Positions 9,751 to 47,853 of a DNA stretch of 64,000 nt are shown here, piece after piece. Below the pieces are notes generated by a model that worked only from the letters and a program-made list of their open reading frames with translations, had not been told where the DNA came from and ran no database searches. The first letter of the stretch is position 1. Each line of letters starts with the position of its first letter. The stretch spans positions 62,001 to 126,000 of the forward strand of contig JAUCBJ010003333.1 of the NCBI GenBank assembly GCA_032718475.1, in the 5' to 3' direction. The position numbers and the translations under genes were made by a program. This DNA comes from Nemertoderma westbladi. Its lineage: Eukaryota; Animalia; Xenacoelomorpha.

Positions 9751-12700
9751 TTGCGTTTTAACGCTACTGTTAAATGGACATCATTCTACTATATGTATTA
9801 TTTAATATACGGTATGAGAGCAATATTGCAAGAAGCTATGTCAGTGAGAAGAGGCAAGTCGTTTCCAATGTCTACCCAGAGCTTGGTTTAGCCGAGACAC
9901 GAGGATCTGAACTTTGCATTCCTAATACTCTACTTACCAATAATACTACCAATATTACCAATAATAAGTATAGTAGGAGCGGTATTTTGTACTTTAATAA
10001 GTACGGACATTTCATCTTACTGTAGTCACGTATTTATAATATGATACGGACAGTAAGGAAAGAGAAAAAAGAATTATTTCTCGCCGTTAAACTTAAATAT
10101 ATAATGCTAAGTAATTAAGTAATAAACACGAATATATATATTGCACTAATCTACTGAATAATCGCTAAAATAATATTCTACTAAATAAAATTAAAGAAAA
10201 CGATTATAATAATAAAATTACGTAATAATACATATATAAATATAAAAATAATAATAAAATATATATAAAATAATGTAGTCACACACCCACTCCAGACCCT
10301 GTTACGTTGAGGAGTCCCTAGATGTTTGTTGGATTAGGGAGTTGGTCGTAGGAAGAGTATCTTGCCTTCCATAGTTTCCGGATAGCTCTCTGTCTCTTTC
10401 CAGTAAACATAAACGACCAACTGGGCGATTGAGTTGTTGTGTTTCGAATACAATTCCAGGTTTCTTAAAGTTACATCGCATGACGACGAGTTCTACCGAT
10501 CGCACTAAACCATCATCGGATATATGAGTCTCGATGATACGACCTGTCTGCCACCTTTTACGTGGAAGATCTGATTTCACAATAAGGACCATGTCTCCGG
10601 CGCTGACGTTTTCTTTCTGCGCAAACCACTTGGTTCGAAGTTGTAGCATTGGCAGATAATGTTTTTCGAAATGGTCAGCGAAACGACGGGATAATAACTG
10701 CATAAGTTGCCAAGTTTGTCGGCAGTATTCGTCTCCGTCCGTGATTTCCGATTGCGGGAGCATGGCTACAGGTTTCTTTAGTAGGAAATGCGCGGGTGTT
10801 AGTGCTTCTAGGGAGTCGGGACTCGATGAGACTGGCATGAGCGGTCTCTCGTTAAGATATGCGGCGATTTCTTCCATTAACGTCCGCAAATGTTCGTCGG
10901 TGAGATACGCGCGGCACGGCACTATAAAGTGAAATGCGGTCTTCACGCTCCGTATTAATCTCTCCCAACTTCCTCCCCACCAAGGGGCGTCGGCGGCGTT
11001 AAAGGTCCAGCTAGATGCTGTTACCCTTAGATGATCGTCCACCTGTCTTTGGTTCCAATCTTTAACGTAAGCTTTGATCTCATTATTGGCGCCAATGAAG
11101 TTCGTTCCCTTGTTGGATCACATGGTGTTGCTAGTTCCAAAGCGAGTGATCTGTCGGCGTAAACTCAGTATGAAGCTGTTGGTAGATAGATCGTTCACCA
11201 TATCTAGATGGATCGCTCTACAAGTCATACAGACAAAGATGACAAACCATCGCTTGACTATAGTCCTAGCACGATATACTTCAATAGGGCCAAATAAATC
11301 CACACCAGTATTAGTAAAGGGTGGTTCATAGAAGCTTACTCGTTCCCTAGGTAATTCTGCCTCTCGCTGTGTCAAAGGCCTACTGAATGCTTTCCTACAG
11401 GGTATTCAGTTCCTAAGAACTTGGTTCAGAGCTCTACGGGGCTTATGGAAATAATAGCGAGTTTGAATTTCGCTAAGAACTCGTTCTCTACCAGCATGGT
11501 AAAGCCTACCGTGAACATCTACAATCATCTTGATTTATATTTCAAGATTTCTAATGAGTATGGGAAATTTATTGTCAAAGGACAATGGAGCATTAGTTAA
11601 TCTCCCTCCGACACGTATTAACCCATCTATCATTGTGCTAGAGAAACGATCCCTTAAGTGCATCTGTGGATTTCTCAACAACAATCTTCATAGCATTGCT
11701 GGAGTCTCAGTATCTGTTTATTGGTTTCTTCATGCTCTTGGTAACTGATCTTCTCCGTCAGAAACCTATCCGACACTTTGTAAGTGGGCAGATCTTTAAT
11801 AGCATGGACCTTTTCGGATATTGTTGGAGCGGTATCATTAGCGATCTCCGTCCTAGAATAGTGATGATGGAAACATCTCTTGAGATACACAACGGCCTTA
11901 CAAAGCCGATTCCAGGAGCTATAATGATTTATTGCTCTCTGCAGGAGAGGTGATAGTCCTTGCGAGACGTCTGGTGTTCCAGATTTCCAGTCTCTTTCTC
12001 TGATTTCTATATCAGATTTGTTCGTTGCGGGGGAGTTTAGATCCACAGCGTCATCCCTGGAGATGTGTAATACAGACAGATCTATCACGGGTTTAAATAA
12101 CTTTGATTTACTCATCCGGGTTTTAGGTTTAACTTTCTCCGCTCCCTTGGCTTGTCTAATCTCAGCCGTGGTGAGATGAGGAGGCCATTCATCCTCTTCT
12201 TTACTTAGGAAGTCGGGTCCACCAAACCAATCTGGAGTATCTATCAGTTCTTGAGGGGTTGCTCCTCTAGAGGCGATGTCGGCTGGATTAATCGTCCCAG
12301 GGCAATGTCTCCTTTGATCTACATTAGCGACTAAGTATAATGGCTACTCTGTTGGTAACGAAGACGCTGAACTGACAGACTTCATTGGTTATATACTCCA
12401 GAACGAGTAAAGCATCAGTCCAATAGACAGTTTTCTCCAGTGGATAGTCGATCTGTTCTGTTACATTCCGGCCGATGGCTGTAGCGTATAGAGCCGCCTT
12501 TAACTCCGCTCGAGGAACTCGTAGTTTGTTGTTTATCAAGGCCTTAGAGGTAACCAAGGCAACTTTAATTCCATCTGGAGTTTCAACCCTCAGGTAGGCT
12601 ACTATACCTATTCCCATATCGCTGGCGTCTCCAAACACATGGAGTTGATAGGAATACGTGGGGAGAACGTGACCAAAATATGAACGGGAAATCGAAAAAG

Positions 12701-15048
12701 TTCTCGATGGATGGTAGAGAATCTTCCCATTTCATCCACTTCTTTAGTAGTTCTCCCTTAAGTGGATCATCCCACGAGTGGTTTTCAAGCCACATTTGTT
12801 GCACCAAGCTCCGAGCAACTAATATAACTGGGCTAATAAATCCCAATGGATCGAAATAAGTGCTCAGGATACTTAGACAAATCCGTTTAGTTCTAACTGG
12901 ATTATCTCGCTGTTTTAACTGGAAAAACAAGATATCTCTCTCCGTGTCCCATTTTAAACCAAATGTTTTGGTTTCTGGAAGATCGTCCTTGATAAGGTCC
13001 AGATCTTTAACACCTCGGTCTTCTACCAGGATCAATTCCAGAAACTCACGGGAGTTACTAGTGAATTTGGTTAACCGAAATCCACCGCGTTGCAAGCACT
13101 CCACCGTTCCCTTGGCAACATCAATGGCTTCTTCCACCGATGGGAGGGACTTTAAATTGTTGTCCATGTATATATCCCGTTTGATGTTGTCGATAACCGC
13201 TTTAGAAAAGACGTCACAGTTGTCATCGGCAGTGGTACGCACTACCGAACAAGCGTTCGAGGGGCTCGAGATGATCCCGAAAGCCTGGATGGTCATCCAG
13301 TACTCCACCGGTTTTCGGTTGAGGTCTCCTTCAGGCCACCACAGAAATCGTAGGCTGTCTCAATCCCTATCCTGCGCCTTGACTTGTAAGAACATGCCTT
13401 CTATATCTGAAGCGAAAGCGATAGAATATTGCTGCAGACTTAATAATATTCCCAACAAGGATTGGAGTAAGTTGGGTCCCGGCAACAGTTCTGAGTTCAG
13501 GGATTGACCCATGTAAAGGGCGGAGCCGTCGAACACTACCCAGACTTCGTTGGGTTTACCAGGCTTGGGAACGTATTGATGTGTTAGATAATACGTCCTC
13601 TCCGTTATGGGTGTTTCTTCCGGTACTCGCTCCGCGTATCCTTTATTGATAAATTTTTTCAGCTGGGTTTTATACATTTCCCTGGCTGGAACGTTGGCTG
13701 TAAGACGCCGATGTAGTTGCGCGATTCTTTTTTCCGCTAAAGTTCGGTTATTTATAAAATTGGGTTCTCGCTGTCTGAAAGGAAGACCAATCTCATAGCG
13801 ACCTTCGTCTTTCAGATAATGAGTTGTCGTTTCCTGAATCTGCTTGGCTCCTCTTCCTCGACGGACAAAGCTTTGTTGTAGGAATTAGGCTCTACGGCTT
13901 CTTGAGTAAAGAATCATGCGGCGTGTTCATCACGGATTTTGTTGTTGTATCGATCTATCACTTCGTTTAATTCGTCATTATATGTGAATTGTCCGCCATG
14001 TTGATCGATGAGATGGCACAAGTTGACTTGGTTTACCCAAGTTTGGTTTTCGGTGAGGAGGTCGATTGTATTTTCCTCGTCATATAATTGGTTAATGTCG
14101 TCATTATCTGAGGAGTATGGTGTTCCCTCAGTGGTGGTTTCTCCCTCACTGATTTCTTCTTCCCATTCACTCACCTGATGTATCCTGTCATTAGGGAGTC
14201 TTTCCATTAGGGTTCTATGGGAAGGTCCAGTGAAGTACCAACCTACTCTCGTTCTTCCCGCGTACGTCTGCAATGGTTGCGGTCGAGCAGGCCGTTTTTC
14301 TAATGTCTCAAGCGCTTCGTGCGCATTTTGGCCGATTAATATCTGTACCCCAGGATAATCGGTGTGGAATCTAGGTATATCATGTTGCTGGGTAAAATGG
14401 TCTTCATCCCAGTTGTAAGGCTCCACTTGGCTAGTAGCAAAGTTCTTTATCGCCACCATTTTTACCGACCTTATGCTATGTTCTCCTAGTTCATCCTGGG
14501 GAGTGGACAACGCACCCACGTAGTAATCTATAGCTACTGTGGACTTCCAAACCTGCATAATTCCTGAAAGGTTCAACTTAGTTCGGAACTTGGGTTGTTC
14601 AGCAAAGATGTCTTCGGCTAGTTCTTTGTCGATGAATGTAACCGTGCTGCCAGAGTCAAGTAGGGCATTTACTATCAGGCTCTTCCCTAGCCCATGGACT
14701 CTCAGCTGCACCACAGGAAATTCCCGGATTCCGAGAGAGGAAGTTGGCGCTTTCCAAGATGGTTGTCGGTCCGGAATAGTCAAACGAGGATCTTCCATTT
14801 CTGATTCAGTCTCGTACGTAAGCGCTCGATACACATCGGTGTTTATCATATAACAGGATTCATTTTTGTCAGAGAATTCGTCCGTGTAAAATCCTTCCAT
14901 CTCAGAGCTGTGGTCAGTGTCGTTCACATCACTGAATTGGACATGTAGTTCGGGCTCACTTACCTGACTCGGGTGGGTTCTGTCAAATTCTGTGTGCAGC
15001 AAAATATGATGTTTCGCGCCGCACTTAGCACACCTCGCGTCTGAGTAA

Positions 15049-15423
15049 GGGGCCGTCCAAGTATGACGTCCGCACTTTTCTCCAAAATGTTGACCCCCTC
15101 CCTCCCCTAAATCAGATGTCATCAGATAGGCGTTGACACCCCCCCTCCCCTAAATCAGATTAAAAAAAATTTCGCTTCCTAATCACTGAAACATGGTGTC
15201 TGGTATCTGAAACAGAAGGTCCTGCTATGGGCCTTCTGGGGCTTCGAACAATTAAAATAGGCAAGCTATTTACTCTTCTGCTATATCTCTTTTAGCACCT
15301 ATAAATGAACATGCTGACGTCAGATTTTGGCTGACCCCCTACCCTCCCTTCATCAGCATGTCATCAGATTTTCCCAACCCCCCTCCCCACCCTAAAGTGC
15401 TGACGTCATACTTGGACGGCCCC
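15049..15423. mobile_element. PIF/Harbinger-type MITE inserted in the Gag zinc knuckle
   Basis: 22-bp TIR GGGGCCGTCCAAGTATGACGTC; TAA duplicated at 15046-48 and 15424-26. Excision restores in-frame GHQRRTCYSDARCAKCGAKHH. Confidence 0.9.
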
Positions 15424-17479
15424 TAACAGGTCCGTCTTTGATGTCCTCGTCTGAGAAAATTATAACACAACCGCTTATCCCACATGACATCACGTCTATC
15501 CTTAAGGGATTTCTTCAAGAATTCATCACACCCACTCAAGCGATGTGGCCCATCGCACAATGCACATTTGGGTTTGATGTTACTTAATTTAACCTGTGTT
15601 GTGTTGTGCACACTTGTTCTTTCATCGGGCTTTCTTCGATGAACTCTCTTAGGAGACGTAGGAGTTGTTGTTACCTGTTCTCTCCTGTCACTGGTTCGAG
15701 ACTTAGATTTACTTACGTCTTTCCGAGTTTTATTGACATAATAAGATCTTTCAGTGTCTTTCCCGCTGTTCTCCTCGTATGAGGTTTGGCTTTCGCCGTC
15801 GTCTGTATAACACACTGGTGTTACCTTTCTCCTAGAAACGGGTTTTTCACTCACCTTACTTTCCGGTGTCTTCTCTCTGGACTGCTTTAGGAGCTGTAAT
15901 CTTACCTCTCCATTTAAGAATGACATGAGATCAGCCATGGTAGGGTCTCTTTGTTGCTGGTCCATCATATAGAGAACCTTTTTGTCCCAACGAGTACCTG
16001 CTCCACCCTTTGGCAAAGTAGATGCTACGGCTCCAACAACCATAGAACTCTGGTATTCCTGAGACTTACCTAACCAATCTAGCTGTCTACAGATCTCCTG
16101 GATCTCATCGGAAAACTCGATAATCCCGCTACTAAGAAACTTTCGGGGCGCTACTAATTTCGCATACATATATTCGCCTAGCTATGTTAGTCCTATTACC
16201 ATGCCTGATGTTTAGTGTATCCCAAACTTGTCTTAATCCATCTGGATGTCCAATAAACTTTAACGCCATTAACTTGGGAGGTCCTTCCAAGCACTCGATG
16301 AGGAATCTAAGTTTCTCTCCGTTAGATAGTACAGAGTTCTGTATGTTATCTTTATAATATTCATTAAAAGGTAACCATTTCATCTCATCTCCATTAAACT
16401 TGACGACCTCTCCCACCTTTACCGCTTGATGGGCTTTGGTTCTAGCCATTTGATGTGTAAAACTTTCTTGAGCCATCGTATTATTTAATATCGAGTTATC
16501 GGTATATAAATTTCCCGGATTATGATCAGATCTGTATGGGATATCATTATCAACAGGTTTATAATTACCCTTAATAGGGTTTACTATAGGGGTTTCTACT
16601 TCACTAGCAGTATATATGCGTGTAGGCTCCACACCTCGCGCATGAAATACTTCAGACCTAACAGGTTGACACATTGTTACAGGGGGTGGTGGTATACCCA
16701 TTTGTATATTTACTAATTTATCGCGCTCTAAAGCGATACTTTGTTGCACTTCTTGCAACTCTAACCTACTCTCTCTCACTGTTCCCTTTAACTGCTGAAC
16801 AGTCCCTTCCAAATCTCGGACCTGCTGGGAAGAAAGTCGTTTATGTTCCTCCAGCTGTCCAAGCAGGCGATTCATCCCCCGCCGTCCCTCGTCCACCCAC
16901 TCAACCACTGCCGTGGGAGTCACCAACGTGGTAGCTGGGTGACACGTGGGGATGATGGGAGACAAGTCATTTATGTCTTGCTCGGCGTCCAGGACTGGGA
17001 GTGATTCAGGGACTAGTCTACTGGGCACAGGTAGTTTAGTACTGTGCAAAGGGAATTTAAAGTTAGGTTCTGGAAGTACAGGTGTCTCTATCACAGAGGG
17101 AGTGGCTTTGAGGACAGGCCTAATTATTTCGGGCTCATCTACTATAGTAGGGAGTCTTTCTACTCTAATAATTTGGTCTGTAGGCTCAGGATTACTTAAA
17201 TCTACACTAGCTAGTTGCCTTCTCACAGCCGGAGGCAAATTAGGCAACTTCTGCCGGTGTGGCGTTCTTCTACGTCCGCTGGAACGAGTTTTATTTCCTC
17301 TACCTTCAGGATCTGTTGTATCGCCTTCATCAGAGGATGTAAATCCCTGTCTCCTGGGAGTAGATCGACTCAGCAGCTGCATCTGGGTAGCTGTTCTCTG
17401 TTTATTTAAGTAATCTTGCTTCGCTTGAAGATTTTCCAACCCTAGTTGGGTTGTCTCTTCAGATGCTTGTCTTACTGCT

Positions 17480-17725
17480 TCAGCCACTGCCGCTTTTCTT
17501 TCAGCCTCTGCCACTGCTGCTTTCCTTTCAGATTCTGCTGCTGCCGCTGCCGCTTTCCTTTCAGATTCTGCCGCTGCCGCTGCTGCTTTCATTTCAGATT
17601 CTGCCACTGCTGCTGCCGCTTTTCTTTCAGCCTCTGCCGCTTTCCTTTCAGATTCTGCCGCGACCGCTGCCGCTTTTCTTTCAGCCTCTGCCGTTGCCGC
17701 TTTCATTTCAGATTCTGCCGCGGCT
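17480..17725 (-). repeat. Coding tandem repeat (~33/27 bp) encoding KAAAAAAESER units in the Gag N-terminal extension
   Basis: Repeated TTTCAGATTCTGCC(GCT)n; translates to an Ala/Glu/Lys-rich helical tract. Confidence 0.9.
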
Positions 17726-19056
17726 GCTGACCTTCGGTCTTCTATTTTGCTTTTTCTTTATCTGCTCTTCTTGGTCCATAGCGATGAGGATGCTTTCATC
17801 ATATTTAGCTTGCTCCGCGGCTAATATTTCTGCATCTAACGAGTCCAACACAAATTTGGCTCCCTCACTATTAGGGTGGAGTCCAGCTAGCCGTCTCCTT
17901 AGCTCTTTGTCACCTATAAATCGTTGATAGTCTGACAGATAGATGTCAATAGCATCCTTCTTCTGAGGTTTCTCGGATATAGCTTCGCCTTCCACCTGAG
18001 AAAAGGTAGCGTCTGTTGATTCTCCGTGGGTCACGCGTTCAGTTAGCTGAACTTTCCATTGTGTCGTTCCTTGGACTTTAAGACTCACCCGTTGGAACCA
18101 AGTCTTTACGGCCACTTGCAACGAGGTGTCTTGGCTTCTCTTCGAAGCTTCCTCAAAGGCTGAAAGGATTAGTCTGATCCGTAAAATTCGTTCTCGCACT
18201 TGATAAAGCAGCTCTCCCTGCTCTTGAGGTCCTTGATGTTGTTGAAATAGGTGTTCTTCTAATCGCTCCAAAGAACTGAAGAATCCCTGGACATATCCTG
18301 CTGCCGACCTCTTCCACACAGCTGGATCCCGCATGTCCCTTACTACTCCCATCCTGTATAAGTCCTCCCAGGCAGCTTCTGATAAGTTAAACGGGAGTCT
18401 GGGTCCAGGGAAGTTCCATTGCGCCTCTACAATAGACCTCAGTTCCTCCATTGTATATCCCGCATAACTGTCCCTGGTCGATCGCTTACTTCTCGCCCAA
18501 TCGATTTGATGTTCCACCACAGCTATCAACACTCTAGTGAGTACGGCTCCAGGAAGAATTAGAAGTGGATCTGGATAAACCGCTTCTGCCATCCTTGCTC
18601 CGATCTCGGGTGTCAACTCTTCGGTGTCTGAACTGCTAGAGTTATCATGCCTTTGAGAAATAAGTTCTCGGTTCGGGTGTTGCTGCTGTTTAACAGCTGC
18701 CTCTTGGTCCCGCTTAACTTGAGCCCTAGTGCCTATGATAGACCTATGGTGCTTTACTAGCCTAGGGTCTGATACTACTACAACTGTAGGGATGATCTTT
18801 CTTACAGTAGGAAGGGACTTGGACTTCGGTCTCAGATGTTCTATACTCTTATCTGAGTCACAGACTGTTCTTTCTAGGAGACTATCTGACAGTGTTTGCT
18901 TTGTGTCAGCCATGATTTATTTTACAGTTGAATGCCTACTGCTATAACGACAGTTAAAGCAAGTCTAGTAATTCAGTATCAACTGTAAGCCTAGTAATTA
19001 ATTACCGATACCGTTACTCAGTGTAACGTGATATATATATAATATATTAAAATACA

Positions 19057-19293: not shown

Positions 19294-22003
19294 TGTGAAT
19301 ACCAGTAATGTCAATTATTTATAATAACTGAATTTCTGGGTTACTTCCCTTTTACTTATTACTGTTATCAAGCAGTATTCCAACTGATATTAAGACCTAA
19401 TTGATGTATACTGTAACATGCCTACTATTTTATAAATCTGTTTGAGTTGATTTATAATATATATATACTCGTACAAGGGTTTTTGACAATATTTGAAATA
19501 AATGTTATTATTTCTGGATAAGGAGTCACTACACAGAAGCTGAACGCTCTCAGTGGAGTGCTACTTGTTGGACACTAAAACGAATAATTCTACTTTACTA
19601 AGTTACTTATCACTACAAATTACTTACAATTACAGTTTGAGATTACAATCTCTAAATAAACAATAACAAGTTACACATACAATTTTTTAGGGTAATTTTA
19701 CAAGAAATCTATAAACCAGCCTAACAAGGAGTTAGAATTTCTGGTTCTTTCAAACTGACAGGAAACTATGGTATTTGAAAACAATAAAGCAGTAGTAAGT
19801 AAGTTGTGTTGTCCAGATAAGAAAATACCACCGTCTGACGACTTATAGTCTTAGCTCTATAAGTACTACGTTATGTACCCGGAGTGTCCTTACCTAGAGG
19901 TTAATTACCGAAGCCAACCAGAGCTAACGTGCCTATTAACCACGTTACAACACAAATATACTGCCTACACACTAAATTACTTTCGGAAAGCACTGTACGC
20001 TAACCCCAAATTAGGTACAAGTACGTATACAACAAATAACCAGCAGTTAAATATACTTCAACAGCCAAAAGAACCACGGTATCTGCTGGAGTGACCGGAG
20101 CACAAAATCACCAGTCTTTACCTACGCCAAGCAGCCCTGATGTAGTACCGGGATTAATTTAACTATAACGGTATGTATAACAAGCACAATTACTGTAGGA
20201 AAAAACTTGGGGAGTTGGAGGTTGCGAATACTCACATAGACTCTGAATAATAAATATTACGCTACCCGTGCAGACTATACAAACAAAACACAGACCAAAT
20301 GCTGGCAGACTACTGTCAAGCCTAAATAAACTACAGTATATGCAGACTCAGAAATGGTTAGTTAGTAGGCGTTCTAACCGAGTAGTACAACTTATTCTTT
20401 TGGGGAGATTTACCTTACAACACTGGATGCCCCCACCTTCCTAACTAGCACTTTATCGGACAGACACTCTACACACACTGCAATCGCTCCAGACCTAACA
20501 ACAGTTAGACAACAATCCGGCCTACAAATTATTTATACAATCTGAGCAGGCTTACACGCCTTCTGCTCAATATTACACTTGCCGATAAATAAAACTGACA
20601 GACATAAATAAGCTCTAAAAGAAATAAGGGGTGTACAGTCCCTACTCTCTTAAACTGCCTACCAATATACAATATCACAATCGAAATAATACTGGTACCG
20701 GTAAGTACCGTTTCGGGTGTTTGGGCAGTTAGGCCTACAGTTTACTGTCCGACCGGTACATTCGACTTTATTGCCTACGGCGCAATAAAGAAACTTAAGG
20801 GGGGGGGGGGGGGGTACACCCCCCTATGGACCTTTTTTGCAAATGGCTATAATTTCTGCTTGTGTATAATTTTGTATGTTTTATACCTTTCGGGGGGGGG
20901 GGGGGGGGATTAACATATGGCCAAAGATTGGGTTCAAAGAAAAATTTTCAAATTTGCGTCGCCCTCTAGCGGCCACCATAAAAACACTACTAGTCTCACA
21001 ATTTTGGGCGAACATTTTCGAAACTTGGTTTTTCTGAATCAGCATCCTCGGCTCCACAAAACTTATCGGTTACATTTTTTTATTTAGGTCTTAAATATTT
21101 TTCAAATATTATTAACTAATATTAATTATTACTTAATTAATAGATATTAACTAATTTCAAGAAATTAATATGGCACAATTCAAAATTCTAACCGATAACT
21201 TTTGATCAAAACCCGAAAAGAAATCAAACAAAAAAAAAATTTCGAAAATTGGTTAAGAAATGGCTGAGTAGTACAGTACAGGCCACCAGAAAACGCAGAT
21301 TTGTACAATTGTGAACACATTTTATCAATTGTGTACCAGTGTAATGTAATGTTGCTGAACGGGACAATTGAACATAATTGAACATAATTGAATTGGCAAC
21401 AACCAAAATTTTTTCGCCAAAGGATACAATTGAATACTTTTGAAACGCTTAGTAATCTGGAAACTCTCTGTAGTTTGCCGCGAACGCAGCTGCAGCTGGA
21501 AATGCGATAAGGATTTTGTTTACCTTTATAGTGTGCGGTTAATAGTGTCTAGTAGGCAGGCCTATAGTTAGAGATGTTAAGCCATCTTCTGGTGTTTCTC
21601 TGTGCCCTCTCGGTGTCAGACTAGTGGCGCGACATCTCCCTGCACTAAATTAATTATTCAATGGTCTAGGCTCGTCCATCCATATACCCACCCACTCCCA
21701 TACACTCCATGAACCTCCATGTGGTCTTGTATGTAGTTCTCTCTCTACCAATACAGCCCATTGATAGTAACAATGTGTTGGCAAGCTGTATTTTTCGAGG
21801 TGTTTGTTATTATACATTTATTATAGGAAGGGATCTTGGGGTCTTAGCCTCGAATGATAAGTTTATTTTACCGAAAATAACTTATCTTTTATTGGCGCAA
21901 TTGTAGGACTAATCCCATCACATGCGTACTTTTTAACCAGATGGTGTACAAATTTAGGAATCGCGTAATTTTTTCTTGAAATTAATATCTCATATCTCTC
22001 CAA

Positions 22004-22046
22004 ACCACGTACGCGTTTCGACCTTACTGGGTCTCATCAGCGTGGT
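22004..22046 (-). ncRNA. Minimal type I hammerhead ribozyme, copy 1
   Basis: Minus strand ACCACG-CUGAUGA-GACC CAGUAA GGUC-GAAA-CGC-GUA^CGUGGU. Intact core, 4-bp stem II, 6-bp stem I, palindromic ACGCGU stem III. Confidence 0.9.
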
Positions 22047-22110
22047 GTCGGATTCGAACCTGGGACCTCGAGGTGGAAGCCGAGACCACAACCACTAGGC
22101 CACAGGTTCT
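22047..22110 (-). promoter_or_regulatory. tRNA-derived internal Pol III promoter directly 5' of the hammerhead (repeated at ~22453-22516 and ~22865-22928)
   Basis: A box TGGCCTAGTGG, loop CTTCCAC (TCC, Gly-like) and B box GGTTCGAATCC at tRNA spacing; no acceptor stem. Confidence 0.82.
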
Positions 22111-22409
22111 TGAGATATGGAGTATTAATTTCAAAGCCAGCTGCCATTTTTTTAGCCCCTGATTTTTTATTATTGATAGTAACAATGTGTTGGCAAGCTG
22201 TATTTTTCGAGGTGTTTGTTATTATACATTTATTAGGGATCTTGGGGTATTAGCCTCGAATGATAAGTTTATTTTACCGAAAATAACTTATCTTTTATTG
22301 GCGCAATTGTAGGACTAATCCCATCACATGCGTACTTTTTAACCGGATGGTGTACAAATTTAGGAATCGCGTAATTTTTTCTTGAAATTAATATCTCATA
22401 TCTCTCCAA

Positions 22410-22452
22410 ACCACGTACGCGTTTCGACCTTACTGGGTCTCATCAGCGTGGT
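22410..22452 (-). ncRNA. Minimal type I hammerhead ribozyme, copy 2
   Basis: Identical to copy 1. Confidence 0.9.
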
Positions 22453-22821
22453 GTCGGATTCGAACCTGGGACCTCGAGGTGGAAGCCGAGACCACAACCA
22501 CTAGGCCACAGGTTCTTGAGATATGGAGTATTAATTTCAAAGCCAGCTGCCATTTTTTTAGCCCCTGATTTTTTATTATTGATAGTAACAATGTGTTGGC
22601 AAGCTGTATTTTTCGAGGTGTTTGTTATTATACATTTATTATAGGAAGGGATCTTGGGGTCTTAGCCTCGAATGATAAGTTTATTTTACCGAAAATAACT
22701 TATCTTTTATTGGCGCAATTGTAGGACTAATCCCATCACATGCGTACTTTTTAACCGGATGGTGTACAAATTTAGAAATCGCGTAATTTTTTCTTGAAAT
22801 TAATTTCTCATATCTCTCCAA

Positions 22822-22864
22822 ACCACGTACGCGTTTCGACCTTACTGGGTCTCATCAGCGTGGT
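22822..22864 (-). ncRNA. Minimal type I hammerhead ribozyme, copy 3
   Basis: Identical to copy 1. Confidence 0.9.
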
Positions 22865-24559
22865 GTCGGATTCGAACCTGGGACCTCGAGGTGGAAGCCG
22901 AGACCACAACCACTAGGCCACAGGTTCTTGAGATATGGAGTATTAATTTCAAAGCCAGCTGCCATTTTTTTAGCCCCTGATTTTTTATTATTGATAGTAA
23001 CAATGTGTTGGCAAGCTGTATTTTTCGAGGTGTTTGTTATTATACATTTATTATAGGAAGGGATCTTGGGGTCTTAGCCTCGAATGATAAGCAAAATTAA
23101 AAAAAGTAAAATAAACTTATCATTCGAGGCTAAGACCCCAAGATCCTTTCCTATAATAAATGTATAATACAGCCCATGTCCGCAATGTTACGTCCTGTGG
23201 GCTCTCTCATCTACCTGATATCAGACATACAGGCGCACCGCACATTAAGCCTTTGTCGGTCCCAGCAAGTTAGCTAGATAACTCGCCATAACATGCCAAT
23301 CAGATGACTTGAACAAATGTGTTCACATGTGATCACATTGGATGAAATCTGCTTTTTCTGGTGGCCTGTACTGTAGTAGTATTTTGAATGTGAAAAATAC
23401 AATTCCGAGATAAACGCATTTAAAGTTTAAAAACAAAATATTTCAAATGTTCCCGCTATTTTCAGTACTGGTATCTCCTTTTCTTTTCCCATTGGTTATC
23501 CCCTATCCATATTTTGTGATTTCTCAATGGATTTCATGAAATTTGGTTCAAAAAAACCCCTACCCACTTTTAACAACCTGTTAAAATAATTTTAGAGTGC
23601 TTGCCAAAAAACACTTCGCGCAGCACGTGAACAAATTACATTTTGGCGTATTGATTTGATCGCATACTATTTCGTCATTTAGTAATAAATAGTCATGGAA
23701 TAATGAGATAACCTTAAGAAACATACAAAATTATATAAAAATTTCCACATAATTTTATAATAAGCCTTTACACAGAACATTAAGCTTTGTGCAGCACGTG
23801 AAACCTTCGCGCAGCACGTGAGACATTTGCGCAGCAGGTGAAGGTTTCACGTAGAACTTAAATTCTTCATAAAGCATGTTAATTAATCGAGCACCTCGGA
23901 AAGCTTTTTGATCAGAATGAGAAGCCTTCACGCGGCACATGAAAAGTTCATGCTGCACATGAAGACTTCGCGCAGCACGTGAAATATTCTCAGAGCCTGC
24001 GGAATTAAAAAAAATAGATTTATGGTTGTTTCCCAGAATAATTATTACTAGCTATTGTTATATGATGGTTCACATTTGTTATTACTAGTAGTCAACTAGT
24101 CCATTAGACAACTGTTCAATATGTAATACAAAACTCACAAATATCTATTAAATTTATATTAATTAAAATTTGACGGACATGTTGACAGACAGACAGACAT
24201 ACAAACAGACAGACAAACTGAGAGACAGACTGAGATACAGAAATAGTGATTAGATAATTCCAAATATTAAAACAGACATCGACATTAAGAAAAATCCTAA
24301 CAGTAAACATTTCAGATTGCTTATTTTATGCCCTTTTTAATATTTCGATGGGCAGACAGACAGACATACAGACGGAAAACCAGCCATTACTCGAGAAGTA
24401 AAAGAGATCTCGCTAAGCCGTTTCCAGATTTGAAATCCGCATTAAATTCTACTCTAGATGAAATAAAAAAAAACAAAAAATGAAAATTTTGATCTGAGGG
24501 GGGGGGGGGGGGGGGGGTGTACCCCCCCCCCCCCCCCCCCCCCCCTTAAAATCTATTAT

Positions 24560-25922: not shown

Positions 25923-27046
25923 GTATCTTATTCTCAGCAAGCAATATTTTGTAATTTATTATGTATGTACTAATATTTAGACATTTCAAATGGCGTCTAA
26001 TCAAAAATCTTCTTAATAATATTATATATATTTACTATAATTAACCATTCATTTTCATTTAATACTAATTGTACAAGGCATGGCTTTGGTGGATATACTA
26101 CTACTAGGATCGGCATGCTGCATTGCAGCTGCATTTTTAAGAATGCTGTGCCGGCTTGTCAACAAAATTGCACCGCCACAACTCCCTATCACCCATGACA
26201 TTTGCTAGATCATCCGCATCTTTAAGGCCAGTGTCCTTTAAGATGCGTCTCAAGAAAGTCATGGGCTGTCCACCATGCTTATTCACTCCATGAGGCTGCC
26301 AAAGTACAAGATTATGCACTGGCTGGTCCTCACGGCGAAAGCAATGTCCTGCAAAGCGGAGGCGATTTTGTTCTAGTGTCAAGCTTGGGGGAACCAATGA
26401 GACACCTCCAATATTATATAGTGTCTGGTTGGAGATGTGTGCATTGTACTTATTGACACAATGAACCCGGCGTAGCATTCTTGTGAATGTGCCATCCAGA
26501 GATTTGGTGTCCTCAGCAGTTAGAGCCCAGCATGGACTCCCGTAGAGGAGTACTGGAACTACTGCTGCTCTAAATAATCGGACCTTAAGTTTCCGATTAA
26601 TTCTAGGTGACATCCAAATCCTGGAAAGCCTATTCAAGGCTGCCCATGCCTTTCCCTTACGTATTCGAAGGTCCTCACCTGACTTCCGGATCCATGATCC
26701 CAGGTAACAGAAGTCGTCCACATGCTCAAGCACACCATCCTTTGAGCTTATGCTCATCCGATCAGAGACTTGCTGAGGACTTTCAAAGTTAACGGTCAGA
26801 ATTTTGGTCTTTCTGGAGTTAATAAAAAGACCAACACTAGAAGCAGCATGTTCTAATGAGCCGATGGTATCTTATTCTCAGCAAGCAATATTTTGTAATT
26901 TATTATGTATGTACAGGTACTAATATTTAGACATTTCAAATTGCGTCTAATCAAAAATCTTCTTAATAATATTATATATATTTACTATAATTAACCATTT
27001 ATTTTCATTTAATACTAATTGTACAAGGCATGGCTTTGGTGGATAT
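25923..27046. repeat. ~175-bp target-site duplication around the RTE fragment
   Basis: 25923-26096 and 26867-27046 are near-identical (GTATCTTATTCTC...GGTGGATAT); the second copy has a 6-bp insertion. Confidence 0.9.
26097..26866 (-). mobile_element. 5'-truncated RTE-clade non-LTR retrotransposon
   Basis: ORF 26137-26757: VDDFCYLGSWI, KAWAALNRLSRIW, KVRLFRAAVVPVLLYGS..W, RLRFAGHCFR. (TAG)n 3' tail. Flanked by a long direct duplication. Confidence 0.85.
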
Positions 27047-33336: not shown

Positions 33337-33553
33337 AATTACATCAGTCTATACTATAATTGGAAATAGCACCTTTTGTTGCAGCGAGCGTCACATACTG
33401 TAGTTGTGTCATATGTTAATTAAATATACAGTACTCTAATATTGTAGTTGCCTCAATTATTGTTATATACATAGTAATGGTGATGGTTTATTGATATTGA
33501 TATTGATATTTATATTATATTGTATTGTTGATATATCTTAATAATAATAATAA

Positions 33554-34234
33554 ATGGCTGACTTTAATTCAGGTCCATATAATTTAAACTTTCAAATGGG
33601 AACGAGTATGATAATTTCTGGGCCATCTGGTTCTGGAAAGTCAATGTTTGTCAGTAATTTAATTAAACACAAGAATGGTTGTTTCAACGAAGCCCCCTTG
33701 CGAGTATTGTATTGTTACGGGAGCAATCTCCCGACTATTCCAGGTATTACTCACCTTTACAAAGGTTTGCCTGAAAATATAGATAGTTTAGTGAATAGTC
33801 GAGATTTATTAATTATAGATGATTTATTAACAGAAACTGAGTCCAGTACAGCTTTAACTGTATTGTTTACTAAGGTAGCTCATCATTCCAATATATTTAT
33901 TTGTTTTATAACGCAAAACATGTTTTACGGTAGGAAGCATAACCGCACAAGATCAATTAATAGCCATACTTTAGTATTAATGAAAAATCCGCGAGACAGT
34001 TTATCAGTTTTAAATTTCGCGAAGCAGATGTTACCAGGGCAGACCAAATTTTTAGTTGATTCCTATCAAGATGCGACAATTGAACCATTTTCACATTTCT
34101 TAATTGATTTACGACAGGAAACACCCGAACATTTAAGATTTAGATCGGATATATTTCGTAATCATAATTGTTACATTAAAAATTACATTGACTATAAACG
34201 TAGTGAAAATAATAATAATAATAATAATAAATAA
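33554..34234 (+). CDS. A32/FtsK-like genome packaging ATPase
   Basis: Walker A GPSGSGKS, Walker B LLIIDD, FITQN, MKNPRD. Confidence 0.95.
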   Translation: MADFNSGPYNLNFQMGTSMIISGPSGSGKSMFVSNLIKHKNGCFNEAPLRVLYCYGSNLPTIPGITHLYKGLPENIDSLVNSRDLLIIDDLLTETESSTALTVLFTKVAHHSNIFICFITQNMFYGRKHNRTRSINSHTLVLMKNPRDSLSVLNFAKQMLPGQTKFLVDSYQDATIEPFSHFLIDLRQETPEHLRFRSDIFRNHNCYIKNYIDYKRSENNNNNNNK

Positions 34235-34271
34235 TTAATATTTTGTAACAATTTTCAATAATGTTGCAACA

Positions 34272-34655
34272 ATGAATAGACTTGTACAGAAATATCGTAA
34301 CGAACTGGAATTTCTACGCAGCGCTACCCCTCAACAAAGAACTTATTTTATTAATCATACCGCGAGTAACGAATTAATACGGCTCATTGTAAATACTGCA
34401 TTAAATGTTCTAAAAGGTAACGTACAATTAACCCCTCATTCATTTAGAAATATTCGCCGCTATAAGAAGGTATTGAAATCACTCAACCGTAAAACAAAAA
34501 ATATATCAAGTTACAGAAAAAAGTTAAGCAATCAATCTGGAGGTATACTACCATTTCTAATACCCTTACTCGGCATTGGTGCGAAACTCGCCGCGAGTGC
34601 CGGTGCCGCCACCGCTGGAGCAGCTATTGCGAAAAAAATTAACCGCGGACGGTAA
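34272..34655 (+). CDS. Conserved small basic Polinton protein (putative virion core protein)
   Basis: NTALNVLKGNVQL and QSGGILPFLIPLLG; Gly-Gly followed by a hydrophobic helix, as in adenain substrates. Confidence 0.8.
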   Translation: MNRLVQKYRNELEFLRSATPQQRTYFINHTASNELIRLIVNTALNVLKGNVQLTPHSFRNIRRYKKVLKSLNRKTKNISSYRKKLSNQSGGILPFLIPLLGIGAKLAASAGAATAGAAIAKKINRGR

Positions 34656-34657
34656 TA

Positions 34658-34828
34658 ATGGTTAAAACAGGAGTAACATTTAGAAAATTATATTTAGTAT
34701 CGAGTAAACCGTTAGCTACTGATTTAAAACCACAAGATATACCTAGAGTAAATACTACAAAAAGAAAACCCTTTAAAACATCAACTTCAAAGAAAATAAT
34801 TAAAAAATTTCAGTTGTTCTTACGGTGA
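34658..34828 (+). CDS. 56-aa basic ORF below the track cutoff
   Basis: MVKTGVTFRKLYLVSS...; starts 2 nt after the previous stop in TAATAATG context. Confidence 0.45.
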   Translation: MVKTGVTFRKLYLVSSKPLATDLKPQDIPRVNTTKRKPFKTSTSKKIIKKFQLFLR

Positions 34829-34879
34829 TGCCCTTTATAAGAGATTTGAATATACATATTACTTGCGGTTGTCGAAAAG

Positions 34880-35968
34880 ATGCCTCGCAAGATGAAACCG
34901 ATTTTAAGCCGAAGCTTAGACAAAAAACTGTTAAGAATTTATTTAGATCCATCATCCCCCGCGGGTTTTGCAAATGTTGCAAAATTAGCAAAAGCTGCAA
35001 ACATCAAACCAGCACAAGCCCAGAAATGGTTGAGCGGGCAAAAGACATACACCCTTCACGCTCCACGTAGACATCATTATCCAACATCTAAAATATTTAC
35101 GGGGGGTTTAAAAGATATATATATGATAGATCTGGTGGATATGCAGCAATATAAATCGCAAAACAATAATTATAACTATATATTAACATGTATTGATGCC
35201 TTTAGCAGGCTTGCTTTTGGCTATGGTATGAAAACAAAAAAGGGTATTGAAATTATTAGTATATTGCAAAAAATATTCCAGAAAGGAAAACCAAACAGAA
35301 TCGCGACTGATCAAGGGTCTGAGTTTCTAAATAAATCTGTAAGAAAATATTTAGATACGTTAGGTATACAGTATTACGTAATGTATTCTGTGAATAAGGC
35401 AGCTATTGTCGAGAGATTCAATAGAACATTAAAAACAAAGATGTTCAAAATTTTTACACAACGAGGAAATAATGTTTGGATTAAAATTTTACCAAAGCTC
35501 ATTTATGCTTATAATAGGTCATATCATAGGACAATAAAAATGACACCTATTGAAGTTAATAAATTTAATGAAACTGAATTAATGAATAGATTATATGGGA
35601 AATATAGACAGATTAATCATAAGAAAATAAAATTTAAAGTTGGAGATACAGTACGATTATCTATCGCTCGTACTGCTTTTGCTAAAGGCTATCGAGAACA
35701 ATGAACACGTGAATTATTTATTATTCATCGTGTCAGGTTGGATAGAGTACCTGCTGTAATGTTCGATATTAAGGACAGCGCTGGAGCTATAATAAAGGGC
35801 TCATTTTATTCTCACGAACTCCAAAAGGTCCACCCGAATAGTAATATTTATCTAGCAATTGACAAAAATATTGGCAAACTTAAAGAACGTGTACGCAATG
35901 GGAAGAAAGAATATTTAGTCCGATTCATCGGATCCAAGAAACAGTCTTGGGTACAGCATATTCAATAA
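34880..35968 (+). pseudogene. Retroviral-type DDE integrase with chromodomain-like tail, one premature TGA
   Basis: IDLVDM, LTCIDAFSR, TDQGSEF, VERFNRTLK. GYREQ*TRELFII at 35702-04 (a Trp position) continues in frame to KERVRNGKKEYLVRFIG..SWV. Confidence 0.92.
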
Positions 35969-36226
35969 GCTTAGGTTTATACTGTATATTAATTCATTTT
36001 GGTCGCATATGACCGTAATTAATCAATATTAACTCGAATGATATTACTATATCTATAGTTCATCCGTTTTAAATAAAGCCAATAAAATATTGATCCCGCG
36101 CATATACTGTAGAAGATGCGACAATGAACGTGGTCACAGATGTCTATAATTTAACATTATACTGTACTGTATGTACAATGGAGTCAAGTAGAGAGAGAGA
36201 GAGCTTAAATAATAATAATAATAATA

Positions 36227-37099
36227 ATGGCCACAGATACATATATCACTCTACTTTCAGATAGCTCATTAAACACTTACCCCAATAATAATCCTAGCGA
36301 GTTTACTGTTGATTTAGCCGAAGAATTATATATTGGTCCAAACGCTAAAATTGGGCTTGCCGAGCTACAATACCAAGCAACATACAGTAATATTACACTG
36401 CAAACTCAAATCTCGCTGTCAATCGGGGTAGATGCAAAAGATGCCAAATTATATAGTTTATTTCCTGGTATGCATAGCTCTATTCAAGTGATTATTGATG
36501 ATATAAATAAACTGTTTAATTCTGAAGCGAAATATAGAGATTTCGAATTCATTTTTAATACAAATAATTCTAGAATTAAATTTAAATTTCCTAAAAAGTT
36601 GAAAAAAATACAATTAAGTCTACGTGGTGATTTAATACAAATTCTAGGCTTAAAACCGTTATTGGATCGGAATCATCCTGGTATTCCGAATTGGGATATA
36701 TACAGTACCACTACAGTAGATGAATTAAGCAATATAGAACAGCCGATATTAATTTTAAATTATAGCGGACCAAAAATTTTGGAAATTGGCATTTTAGATT
36801 TTCCAGCTCCCACGAATATAACACGTAATAAAGACACTATCTTTATATATACAGATATTATTAAGAGCTCATTTGTTGGTGACGCTTTAGCACCGCTCTT
36901 AAGAACCTGCCCTTTAACGCAATTAAATCGAAAATATATTAATCACGAATATGAGAGCATTTGCTATTACCCGTTGTTGAATAAAAAACTAAAAACAATC
37001 TTAATTACTTTACGTGACGGACAAGGCGAATTAATTAATTTTAGCGGAGGTCGCACTGTTATAACACTTAAGTTAATACGGGGTGGCAGTGATGGATGA
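36227..37099 (+). CDS. Minor capsid (penton) protein 1
   Basis: YITLLSDSS..YPNNNPSEFTVDL..IGLAEL; FIYTDII..VGDALAPLLR; YYPL..ITLRDGQGELINF. Confidence 0.9.
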   Translation: MATDTYITLLSDSSLNTYPNNNPSEFTVDLAEELYIGPNAKIGLAELQYQATYSNITLQTQISLSIGVDAKDAKLYSLFPGMHSSIQVIIDDINKLFNSEAKYRDFEFIFNTNNSRIKFKFPKKLKKIQLSLRGDLIQILGLKPLLDRNHPGIPNWDIYSTTTVDELSNIEQPILILNYSGPKILEIGILDFPAPTNITRNKDTIFIYTDIIKSSFVGDALAPLLRTCPLTQLNRKYINHEYESICYYPLLNKKLKTILITLRDGQGELINFSGGRTVITLKLIRGGSDG

Positions 37100-37937
37100 A
37101 TTCTACGTAAGACTACCAAGTAACTCCTGTCCAATTGATTTTCCCCGCAATAGCGCTAGTAATTATCAGATCAATTTCCATGGCGCCTTACCTATAAACC
37201 CAAACGAAAACTGGGTGGTAGGTATAAAAAGTATATTTTACTTAGCTACGTTGCCGTCCATGTATAACAATGTAGAGAATGTTATTTTATTAAAAAAAGG
37301 AAAAAAAAATTTTGAGGATACACTTCCATCCGGTTTGTTCTACAGTATCAATGACATTATAGATTATTTTAACACGGGGGCGTTGAAAGATAAATTACAA
37401 ATAGTTGAAAATACTCAGCAAAATAGGTTGCAATTTATTTTAGGGAAAACTGTGCGAGAGTTATTTATAGGTCAACAATTAGCCTATTATTTTGGAATTA
37501 CTGAAAATAATCTCGGCGCGAATTTAAATCCAAATTTTAAAATTATTTTGAAGACGAAAAATAATATAAAGGGTTATTTAATAAAGGTTATCGGAAATGG
37601 AGAAAAAGCTTACCAGATGGTATTTTTATGCCCTCAACCACCCAATTCTATTCCAGAACCTAAGTCGAACATGTACGTGACTACTAATATAATTGAAAAT
37701 CAATATATTAATGACTTTGGTTTAGCTTTACTTCGTCGTGTTGCGATACCTGATGACGTGAAATATGGTAGCGTAATAAATAAAGAATTTGTCAAGGATA
37801 CAATTCATTATATCCCTGTAAAAAAATCATATAAGATAACATACATTCATATTGAAATAACAGACAAAGAAGGAAAAGATTTGAATTTTGAATACGGGAC
37901 AACATCTATTACATTACACTTTAAACGAATAAATTAA
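37092..37937 (+). CDS. Minor capsid (penton) protein 2, divergent paralogue
   Basis: FYVRLPSNS..FPRNSASNYQI..WVVGI; YVTTNII..ALLRRV; HYIPV..IEITDKEGKDLNF..ITLHFKR. ATG at 37092 overlaps the penton 1 stop region. Confidence 0.88.
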   Translation: MDEFYVRLPSNSCPIDFPRNSASNYQINFHGALPINPNENWVVGIKSIFYLATLPSMYNNVENVILLKKGKKNFEDTLPSGLFYSINDIIDYFNTGALKDKLQIVENTQQNRLQFILGKTVRELFIGQQLAYYFGITENNLGANLNPNFKIILKTKNNIKGYLIKVIGNGEKAYQMVFLCPQPPNSIPEPKSNMYVTTNIIENQYINDFGLALLRRVAIPDDVKYGSVINKEFVKDTIHYIPVKKSYKITYIHIEITDKEGKDLNFEYGTTSITLHFKRIN

Positions 37938-37938
37938 A

Positions 37939-38502
37939 ATGGATTCTGATTTATTTCAAAGATACAGTAAACCTCAATATGGTGGTGCAGACTCGAATCT
38001 TGCTGTTTTTAAAGGTGGTAGAAGTACGAGAGGCTCGACGCAAGTTCCTGTTTTTCGAGGTGGTTCATATATTGACCCTTACGGTCAACAAATTGGCGCA
38101 TTTGGTCCAAACTTAAAACAACGTCGTTTTCAGCATTATCGTAGAGGTATGCGGGCAAATCAACACGGAGAAGGTATATTTACAGACGCTTTATCGACAT
38201 TGAAAAAATTTGGTAAGCCATTAGCTAAAAAAGTTTTACAGAAAGCTTTACCATTTACCACAAAATTTATGAGACAACATGTAATACCAAAAGGTAAGCG
38301 GGTCTTACATCAGCAGGCTAATACGGTTATTAATAAAGCATTAAATAAAATGAAACCGTCGACAAGGTCAGTTGTAGAAAAAGTTTATAGAGATTTAAAG
38401 CCACCCGCTAGACCAATGTCTATGAACATACATCATCGACGTAGTAATAAAAATAAAAAAATAAAGGGCAAACTGAAACACTGCGAAAAAAGTATTTTTT
38501 AA
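37939..38502 (+). CDS. Basic core/membrane-active precursor with adenain-type sites
   Basis: YGG, FKGG, FRGG and QHGEG, followed by amphipathic IFTDALSTLKKFGKPLAKKVLQKALPF; basic C-terminus. Confidence 0.75.
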   Translation: MDSDLFQRYSKPQYGGADSNLAVFKGGRSTRGSTQVPVFRGGSYIDPYGQQIGAFGPNLKQRRFQHYRRGMRANQHGEGIFTDALSTLKKFGKPLAKKVLQKALPFTTKFMRQHVIPKGKRVLHQQANTVINKALNKMKPSTRSVVEKVYRDLKPPARPMSMNIHHRRSNKNKKIKGKLKHCEKSIF

Positions 38503-38504
38503 TA

Positions 38505-39764
38505 ATGTCAATTATTAAGGAATTAGATTTATTTTCTACACAGCCAATACAGACTGAATTTAAAGCAAAGCATTATGAAACAATTTACCCCGTATCTAAT
38601 CTCAGAAGTGAGTCTAGAGAAGTCACGTTCCTTGTACCGAGATCCAAAGAATTCTATACGAAACTGCAAGATGCGTTATTAATTACAAAATGTACTGTAC
38701 GGTGGGATAGACGACTTGAAAATTCTCATATATATATGCTGAATTACCCCGCTGAAACTATGTGGAGTGATATTAAAATAGACCTTAATGAGAAGCAGGT
38801 TGAAAATAGCAATAACCATTATTTCTACAAGTCGTACTTATCCAATTTACTATTTATAACTTACGAGGATAAAAATGGGCTACTGGGTGCGGGTGGCTTT
38901 CATCAACCTTTATCTGAGCACGGAAATGAAATTGACCCCGGCGCGCATCCTATTGGCGATGCCTTTAGTAAACAAATGCAATTTGTAAGTGGATTGACTA
39001 TTGATTTTGATACTGAAAGCAAAATAATACAACCTGGGTATGATTTAAGAATGCATTTTAGAAAAGTATCAAATTCGTTTATTTTTAAAATCACTCCAAA
39101 CGCAAACGCGGTGACAAATCTTCGGCTAGAATTAGATGAAATAAAGATCCTAATCCCTAGAATGGAGGTTAATCCGGTAATAGAAAGCAGTCACCTAAAA
39201 GGTTTAGAGAGTTACGATATTGAATATCAATTCCAAAAAAAGGAGGTTACAACATTTACTATTCCCGCTCAAACCACAAATTACACCCAAACAAACATAT
39301 TTGATGGTAAAAAACCCAAATTAGTTATTATCGGCTTCATAACAAATAACGCTTATTCGGGAGAATTAATTAGCAATCCCTTGAAATTTGAACATTTTAA
39401 CCTTACACGCGCGGAACTGATTGTAGACGGTCTTCCAGTAGGTGGTGTAATATACGAGCCTAATTTTACAGATGGAACATATATTTTTGAGTATACTCAA
39501 TTAATGAAGAACATTAATACATATATTAACGGTTATGGAGGTAATAATATAGACCATGAAACCTACTTAGGTAATTGCCCCATCCTATCCTGGGACTTAA
39601 CCGCCGACGGCTATGTTAGAGATCCGCAACCGTCGATATATACTAACGGCCAATTAAAATTAAGATTTGCCGAACCGTTGGTTGAAACCATAAATGTAAT
39701 CGTTTTTAATATTTATGATCAATCATTAAGTTTAAATAGCAGGAAAGAAATACATATCGATTAA
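38505..39764 (+). CDS. Double jelly-roll major capsid protein
   Basis: ELDLFSTQPIQT, KPKLVIIGF..NAYSG..NPLKFEHFNL, WDLTAD, LKLRFAEPL. Confidence 0.93.
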   Translation: MSIIKELDLFSTQPIQTEFKAKHYETIYPVSNLRSESREVTFLVPRSKEFYTKLQDALLITKCTVRWDRRLENSHIYMLNYPAETMWSDIKIDLNEKQVENSNNHYFYKSYLSNLLFITYEDKNGLLGAGGFHQPLSEHGNEIDPGAHPIGDAFSKQMQFVSGLTIDFDTESKIIQPGYDLRMHFRKVSNSFIFKITPNANAVTNLRLELDEIKILIPRMEVNPVIESSHLKGLESYDIEYQFQKKEVTTFTIPAQTTNYTQTNIFDGKKPKLVIIGFITNNAYSGELISNPLKFEHFNLTRAELIVDGLPVGGVIYEPNFTDGTYIFEYTQLMKNINTYINGYGGNNIDHETYLGNCPILSWDLTADGYVRDPQPSIYTNGQLKLRFAEPLVETINVIVFNIYDQSLSLNSRKEIHID

Positions 39765-39790
39765 GTATATTATCTACAGAGGACCTTGAT

Positions 39791-40219: not shown

Positions 40220-40250
40220 TTAATCATTTAACTTTTGTTTATCAGATAAA

Positions 40251-41823: not shown

Positions 41824-41963
41824 CATAGTTAATTTATTTATGTATTCGCTTTTTTTTTTAAATTATATATAAAATAGATTCAGGCTACTAAGTTTTATAA
41901 GCAACAATAACTGATAACAATAACAACAACAACAACACTAAATTTATTACTGTATTATACTTT

Positions 41964-47647: not shown

Positions 47648-47853
47648 GTTGAAGTTTGTTAGTTTGTTTAGATAAATAATAATAATAATAATAAAATATG
47701 TCCAAAGATTAAAATGAAATGAAATGAAATGAAATGTTATTGACTATATCTAAACATTTATATGCTAGTGAGGGAAATAATTTTAAACCAATCACCAATC
47801 ACCAATCGCTTATGACTATTAGAAACCACAAAGAGTTTAACTTATGATTAGGT

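Follow-up and report, generated by a model that had tools for sequence, protein, structure and literature searches.

In a 64,000-nucleotide stretch of the Nemertoderma westbladi genome (assembly GCA_032718475.1, contig JAUCBJ010003333.1, positions 62,001 to 126,000 of the forward strand; hereafter, the window), we identified a tandem array of units of approximately 410 bp in which tRNA-derived promoter boxes are followed by a hammerhead ribozyme. We interpret this array as a non-coding, multi-copy retrozyme of the schistosome Sm-alpha type that was likely inserted by a Penelope-like element (PLE), probably from circular RNA, and assign the overall mechanism a probability of roughly 0.68. A preliminary description of this DNA had proposed a hybrid of a short interspersed element (SINE) and a retrozyme; the family indeed appears dispersed, high-copy and selected, with a geometry that fits a circle or an uncut multimer, but its design is less new than that description suggested. 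The Penelope-type insertion scars, which the description had overlooked, are the most informative part. Features are listed in Table 1; comparisons with published work refer to excerpts of the cited papers, except for PMC11167929 and bioRxiv 10.64898/2026.07.22.740005.

Structure of the units and the ribozyme

The array comprises 3.24 units that differ pairwise at 3 to 4 positions, and the expected tandem repeat of 406 to 412 bp was confirmed (412, 406 and 412 bp, plus 102 bp). On the minus strand, all three full units have the same order of A box, decayed tRNA body, B box and type I hammerhead; the B box begins 42 nt after the start of the A box, and is followed by 9 nt and then by the hammerhead. 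Tandem non-coding units of 150-450 bp with a type I hammerhead, a feature of membership among retrozymes, were thus present in 3/3 full units. The letters at the equivalents of positions 21941, 21943 and 22557 are common to the three full units and nearly absent from the sequencing runs, which points to one template that was copied several times.

The hammerhead core with a GUA cut, as previously described, was found in all three full units (22010/22009, 22416/22415 and 22828/22827), and the hammerhead descriptor matched none of 1000 shuffled sequences. An Rfam search, proposed earlier as a check, yielded matches that were significant by E-value (HH9, 26.6 bits, E = 5e-4; Hammerhead_1, 26.0 bits, E = 1e-4) but remained under the gathering score. 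Helix I has 6 bp, helix II has 4 bp, and helix III is short and palindromic. According to PMC4209133, this is the canonical build of metazoan type I ribozymes, and the label of a 'minimal' PLE-type hammerhead was accordingly abandoned. Since loop 1 is 2 nt shorter on each side than that of HH9, the tertiary contact is uncertain. By the definitions of PMC4209133, cleavage should require a dimer, and the computed energy of the helix III palindrome duplex is -7.5 kcal/mol. In predicted folds of read-through RNA, helices I and II pair with a probability of 0.74-1.0; the range is 0.54-0.85 for a primary transcript that lacks the clamp described below. The ribozyme is likely to be active, with predicted self-cleavage as a dimer.

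Insertion scar

The array is one young insertion. Its 12-bp target-site duplication exceeds the 4-bp criterion for dispersed metazoan non-LTR (lacking long terminal repeats) retrozymes; the range of 21750..23177 in the preliminary description takes in this duplication and an inverted 5' copy, but neither was described there. Empty sites, in which the left flank is joined directly to the right flank, were found in six contigs of run X1 and one contig of run X2, and, because the host repeat is multi-copy, represent its other copies and not necessarily this locus. This host repeat (21269-23378), whose inverted arms are 78% alike, probably resembles a miniature inverted-repeat transposable element.

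In the sense of the transcript, the inverted copy sits at the 5' end of the element, after a 14-nt spacer. The inverted piece (unit positions 49-112) and the end of the array body (position 102) fall in the same hairpin. This geometry is compatible with twin priming, in which the template is primed a second time, together with a stall at the hairpin. Twin priming is known from work on the long interspersed element (LINE) LINE-1. The insertion pattern of PLEs consists of partial tandems whose 5' copy is inverted and truncated (PMC8557442), and this feature of PLE-mobilised elements was observed here. Matches to microRNA families in Rfam at 23035-23173 were rejected because they reflect the inversion hairpin.

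Dispersed copies and a fixed 3' end

The unit is present at high copy in runs labelled organism A (3479, 1353 and 82 records in X1, X2 and X6, respectively), and a second alignment to the runs gave 1426 records in X2 and 1932 in X3. Most family records in the organism A runs are at least 95% alike. We infer that the family has hundreds of copies or more in organism A, with the qualification that record depth does not equal copy number; the summed contig depth, which for the unit is approximately 25-fold that of the flank repeat in X1, was likewise not used as a copy number.

Joints between the unit and other DNA were mapped in the two DNA runs X2 and X3 with the unit joint placed mid-stretch (14 rows listed and 445 more outside the list), and earlier in X1, X2 and X6 (469 rows outside the list). 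Unrelated flanks were joined at 22568-22576 in at least 47 contigs (9 + 10 in X2; 3 + 7 + 18 in X3), and, among the joints listed, at the equivalent site 21762 in at least 12 further contigs of X2. In the 14 joint rows listed, joints elsewhere on that side were limited to two contigs, and the ribozyme cut had none. This places the family 3' end 244-252 nt downstream of the ribozyme cut, within a loop that a short stem closes; both strands of this stem are recognisable in loose ends of a further run, X7. As the flank joints listed gather at one internal site and none of them falls at the cut, the ribozyme cut does not define the element end. Among the joints listed, the family therefore shows a feature of PLE passengers, in that copying would begin at a fixed internal site distant from the ribozyme cut. 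Opposite-strand joints were also present in other family copies (at least three in X3 and at least one in X6, among the joints listed), and head-to-tail joints are common across the family in the organism A runs. Taken together, the scar and the mapped ends make a PLE-type insertion very probable.

We also noted a variant in X2 and X3 with joints at 22462/22710, in which 17 nt of the element end connect the B-box region with a later stretch of the unit; this is a shortened or self-inserted subfamily.

We further considered an ordinary tRNA-derived SINE moved by a LINE (e.g. RTE), with tandems arising from later DNA-level duplication. LINE machinery, too, is associated with tRNA-derived heads, with 5' inversions and with target duplications such as the 12-bp one found here; moreover, the fixed end adjoins an A6 run, and an RTE-like fragment is located at 26137-26871 in the window. 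However, the head lies mid-unit rather than at the 5' end of the insertion and there is no A or repeat tail, so that the classical layout of a LINE-dependent SINE (5' tRNA head and 3' A-rich or repeat tail) was not observed in this element. In addition, the unit has no DNA similarity to the RTE-like region, and many family copies show head-to-tail joints. We regard this explanation as improbable.

Promoter boxes and signs of selection

The occurrence of an A box and then a B box at tRNA spacing, directly before the hammerhead, held up in a control in which a relaxed A and B box pair matched 3 of 1000 shuffled sequences. ARAGORN at default settings detected no tRNA at the unit; at a relaxed threshold it reported a pseudo-tRNA at 22039-22105 with a TCC-type loop, but this setting also fires on 132/1000 shuffles, and the call was rejected as stand-alone evidence because it is too frequent in shuffled sequence. 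The preliminary description had also contrasted the T runs of the two strands. The counts (1 versus 7 per unit) were as described, but the skew is within chance (binomial p = 0.07; 16 of 139 control windows equally skewed), and the strand bias was dropped as evidence for transcription by RNA polymerase III (Pol III).

A diverged relative with the same element order was obtained from three short contigs of X7, a sediment metagenome run. Alignment, at 80%, was restricted to the module of clamp, ribozyme and boxes and to 41 nt adjoining the fixed end. One contig contains a single change in 80 nt across the clamp arm, ribozyme and B box. The next contig contains 13 changes in 96 nt, and the nine listed comprise seven in the box spacer and two in the A box. 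The difference between the box spacer (7/25) and the module (1/80) was significant (Fisher's exact test, p = 1e-4; 7e-4 with wider limits), in a test of one relative with block limits set after seeing the data. Three A-box changes across two X7 contigs were all at variable positions and within the box consensus, and the anticodon-like loop is TCC in the window and TTC in the relative. In these sequence comparisons, the boxes and the ribozyme look to be under selection. The tRNA-derived boxes are likely used by Pol III. The absence of variants in organism A (0/11 places at ≥1% in the ribozyme and boxes) was set aside as too weak, since the family is so young.

Alternatively, the boxes might be inert, with read-through from flanking Pol II or Pol I transcription and a B-box-like motif that is either retained solely for its role in RNA pairing or left over from a decayed second copy of the ribozyme 3' half. 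The B box indeed pairs with the sequence preceding the A box in the predicted fold, the T-run bias is not significant, and a B-box look-alike before the hammerhead is such a duplicate at two other loci (L030 and L037, see below). These points are countered by the position of the A box at tRNA spacing, by the retained anticodon stem, and by the invariant A-box positions, which are unchanged in the X7 relative while the spacer drifts; we consider inert boxes most improbable.

Template and proposed mechanism

The 23-bp clamp (21976-21998 and 22112-22134) was found as previously described, with arms 87% identical, and the clamped module of tRNA and ribozyme folds with a z score of -5.1. With its 5' arm located upstream of the predicted Pol III start, the clamp would be present only in read-through RNA or in a circle. 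Once cut, the monomer is predicted to have its two ends paired by helix I and the clamp; the circle has a predicted folding energy of -100.7 kcal/mol (z = -3.9), and 1 of 100 shuffles was as low. Cleavage leaves the promoter at the 3' end of the monomer, and a linear cut monomer would thus yield only approximately 250 nt without a promoter. Because the copies contain full units with the promoter, the template must be a circle or an uncut multimer. Between these, circular RNA is somewhat favoured as the template.

The same element and PLE enzyme could instead use an uncut read-through multimer, with the ribozyme as a passenger or brake and any circles as by-products. In the anole, the PLE enzyme initiates within its RNA, cleaves AT-rich DNA and takes unprocessed RNA; ribozyme mutants insert normally (PMC11167929). 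Helix III of the present element is weak. In contrast, the ribozyme and clamp form the best-kept block in the X7 relative, the 5' arm of the clamp is upstream of the predicted start and joins both cut ends, and the private letters are common to all three units. We therefore consider the uncut multimer unlikely, though the least so of the alternatives.

We propose the following steps for a retrozyme inserted from circular RNA. Pol III would start near the tRNA head and sometimes pass the single T4 run into the next unit. Two hammerheads are predicted to pair via the palindromic helix III and cut, releasing a monomer of approximately 410 nt, whose promoter would now be at the 3' end and whose ends would be held by helix I and the 23-bp clamp; a host ligase may then close the monomer (cf. 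PMC7229834). A putative PLE endonuclease would nick AT-rich DNA, and its reverse transcriptase would start at the internal stem-loop approximately 250 nt past the cut, where the end position was mapped. Copying would run across the cut site to reach the promoter, on a circular or uncut multimeric template, for 3.24 laps in this case. The 5' end is closed by the short inverted copy and the 12-bp target duplication.

Several observations weigh against this mechanism. The scores for HH9 and Hammerhead_1 are both under gathering with a shortened loop 1, 8 of 9 predicted Xenopus retrozyme dimers were uncleaved (bioRxiv 10.64898/2026.07.22.740005), and the anole PLE inserts uncut RNA with a dispensable ribozyme (PMC11167929). 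The circle is 56% paired, compared with >70% in published retrozymes (PMC4918200), and the plus strand has a good predicted fold as well (z = -2.8). The T4 run at 21874-21877 may end Pol III transcripts (approximately 235 nt) before the copying start. The private letters could also be produced by local DNA-level duplication or by a different host population, and the comparison with the X7 relative is narrow, as stated above. Finally, the PLE 'tail' (a second start 30-40 nt away) was not among the joints listed, and a scan of 21 + 88 frames within the window turned up no PLE reverse transcriptase.

A 441-nt self-closing contig of run X4 (410 + 31) was rejected as a sign of expression or of a circle, because X4 also contains the flank repeat and such a loop arises from tandem DNA as well; X4, which carries a different organism label, was taken as RNA only by guess.

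Comparison with known systems

The schistosome repeats Sm-alpha and Sj-alpha are tandem and SINE-like, with a promoter followed by a hammerhead (PMC6765202, PMC2770079, PMC8490949, PMC2220036). The present element shares with Sm-alpha the tRNA-derived Pol III-type promoter, the type I hammerhead after it, the tandem copies, and a monomer that after cleavage carries the promoter at its 3' end, a problem stated in PMC6765202; its ribozyme can also be aligned to Rfam Hammerhead_1, with the helix II loop included. It differs in unit length (approximately 410 versus approximately 335 bp), in a tRNA of which decay has left boxes and a Gly/Glu-like loop (Sm-alpha has a full tRNA-Gln), in a shorter helix III and loop 1, and in the 23-bp clamp. 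The loop (TCC, or TTC in X7) is not of the Gln type, and the likeness to Sm-alpha is drawn here from published descriptions. PLE-type ends were mapped here and are unreported for Sm-alpha in the excerpts of PMC6765202, PMC4918200, PMC2770079 and PMC8490949. The promoter-then-hammerhead design is therefore already known, and the PLE footprints are unusually clear in the present array.

Metazoan non-LTR retrozymes form circles and are proposed PLE passengers (PMC7229834, PMC7761336; bioRxiv 10.64898/2026.07.22.740005). The present element resembles them in its tandem units of 150-450 bp with one type I hammerhead each, GC content below 50%, large target duplication, lack of any open reading frame (ORF), and proposed PLE partner (PMC7229834, PMC7761336), and differs in having its own tRNA-type promoter and less predicted self-pairing. 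With PLEs it shares partial tandems, an inverted truncated 5' copy, a hammerhead with a palindromic helix III (PMC8557442, PMC4209133), and an internal copying start in AT-rich targets (PMC11167929), whereas it has no ORF for reverse transcriptase or GIY-YIG endonuclease, a canonical 6/4-bp ribozyme instead of the minimal form, and no 30-40-nt tail among the joints listed.

According to the excerpt of PMC4918200, the schistosome repeats are the only metazoan retrozymes with a tRNA. The searched literature, which left Repbase and most subscription papers outside its scope, contained no case of tRNA boxes with a hammerhead outside schistosomes, and the supplements of bioRxiv 10.64898/2026.07.22.740005 could list some. 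Pattern scans for a B box with a hammerhead matched 7 loci in viral and 39 in metagenome contigs, all of which lack the combination of an A box and both helices, and 0 loci in prokaryote contigs. Most of the viral and metagenome loci were rejected as real tRNA genes with chance motifs, and L030 and L037 as hammerheads without an A box. In L030 and L037 (1501-1560, plus strand), the B-box look-alike before the hammerhead is a decayed copy of the ribozyme 3' half, and L030 also has a 113-bp inverted copy; caution is needed, as hammerhead halves can mimic B boxes.

A wider reading, which we hold only tentatively and consider rather less probable than its component steps, is that the element is a self-promoting circular-RNA SINE of PLEs outside schistosomes, in which Pol III boxes would drive transcription, the ribozyme and clamp would form a circle, and the stem-loop would recruit the PLE for rolling-circle insertion.

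Other features of the window

The window consists of repeat-rich, animal-type DNA with Pao/BEL, Polinton and RTE-like sequences and a 41-bp satellite. Remains of a Pao/BEL long terminal repeat retrotransposon (DUF1759, peptidase A17, DUF5641) lie at 10300-18900, and a Polinton/Maverick-like element at 33500-49000 has frames for a packaging ATPase, an integrase and a protein-primed DNA polymerase, several of them interrupted. The satellite (59147-63072) has 96 copies that are 89% alike. Pieces derived from tRNA with box-like motifs and without a hammerhead at approximately 57072, 51520 and 52480 (all minus strand) are likely ordinary SINE remnants. An uninterrupted WD40-like frame of 776 aa (54268-56598, minus strand) had no relative in a protein search, and a WD40 fragment at 2131-2586 (plus strand) had best relatives approximately 30-40% identical, often bacterial long WD40 proteins.

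Table 1. Features of the retrozyme array and its insertion site (positions in the window)
Feature	Position	Strand	Remarks
Host repeat	21269..23378		72-nt inverted arms, 21269-21340 / 23307-23378; receives the element
Target-site duplication, left copy, 12 bp	21750..21761		last 2 nt common with element end
Tandem array	21760-23091	-	period 412, 3.2 copies, 98% alike
Unit 1, 412 bp	21760..22171	-	3'-most unit in transcribed sense
Unit 2, 406 bp	22172..22577	-	carries 6-bp deletion
Unit 3, 412 bp	22578..22989	-	full unit
Fourth unit, 102 bp	22990..23091	-	5'-truncated; stops within A/U hairpin
T4 run, sole one per unit on transcribed strand	21874..21877	-	in predicted hairpin; possible leaky Pol III terminator
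Clamp 3' arm, 23 bp	21976..21998	-	continues helix I
Hammerhead type I, unit 1	22004..22046	-	predicted cut 22010/22009
Hammerhead type I, unit 2	22410..22452	-	predicted cut 22416/22415
Hammerhead type I, unit 3	22822..22864	-	predicted cut 22828/22827
Decayed tRNA body	22039..22105	-	relaxed ARAGORN, weak alone; anticodon stem retained; degradation in D, T and acceptor stems
B box	22050..22060, 22456-22466, 22868-22878	-	within 80-nt block with 1 change in X7 relative
A box	22092..22102, 22498-22508, 22910-22920	-	tRNA spacing to B box
Clamp 5' arm, 23 bp	22112..22134	-	upstream of predicted Pol III start
Stem 22544-22551 / 22598-22606	22544..22606	-	around fixed 3' end 22574-22580; putative reverse-transcription start
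A-rich spacer, 14 nt	23092..23105		at inversion joint
Inverted partial copy, 64 nt	23106..23169	+	unit positions 49-112, 98%; 4-nt overlap with right duplication
Target-site duplication, right copy, 12 bp	23166..23177		

Implications for retrozymes

For animal retrozymes, both the transcribing polymerase and the inserting enzyme are stated to be unresolved (PMC7761336, PMC7229834, in the parts cited; bioRxiv 10.64898/2026.07.22.740005). Here, one unit of approximately 410 bp combines a promoter and a ribozyme with a mapped copying start and a complete insertion scar, which makes both questions directly testable. If true, the reading of this element as a circular-RNA SINE of PLEs would join Sm-alpha and the retrozymes in one class of PLE passengers, and would name the polymerase and the integrating enzyme for retrozymes.

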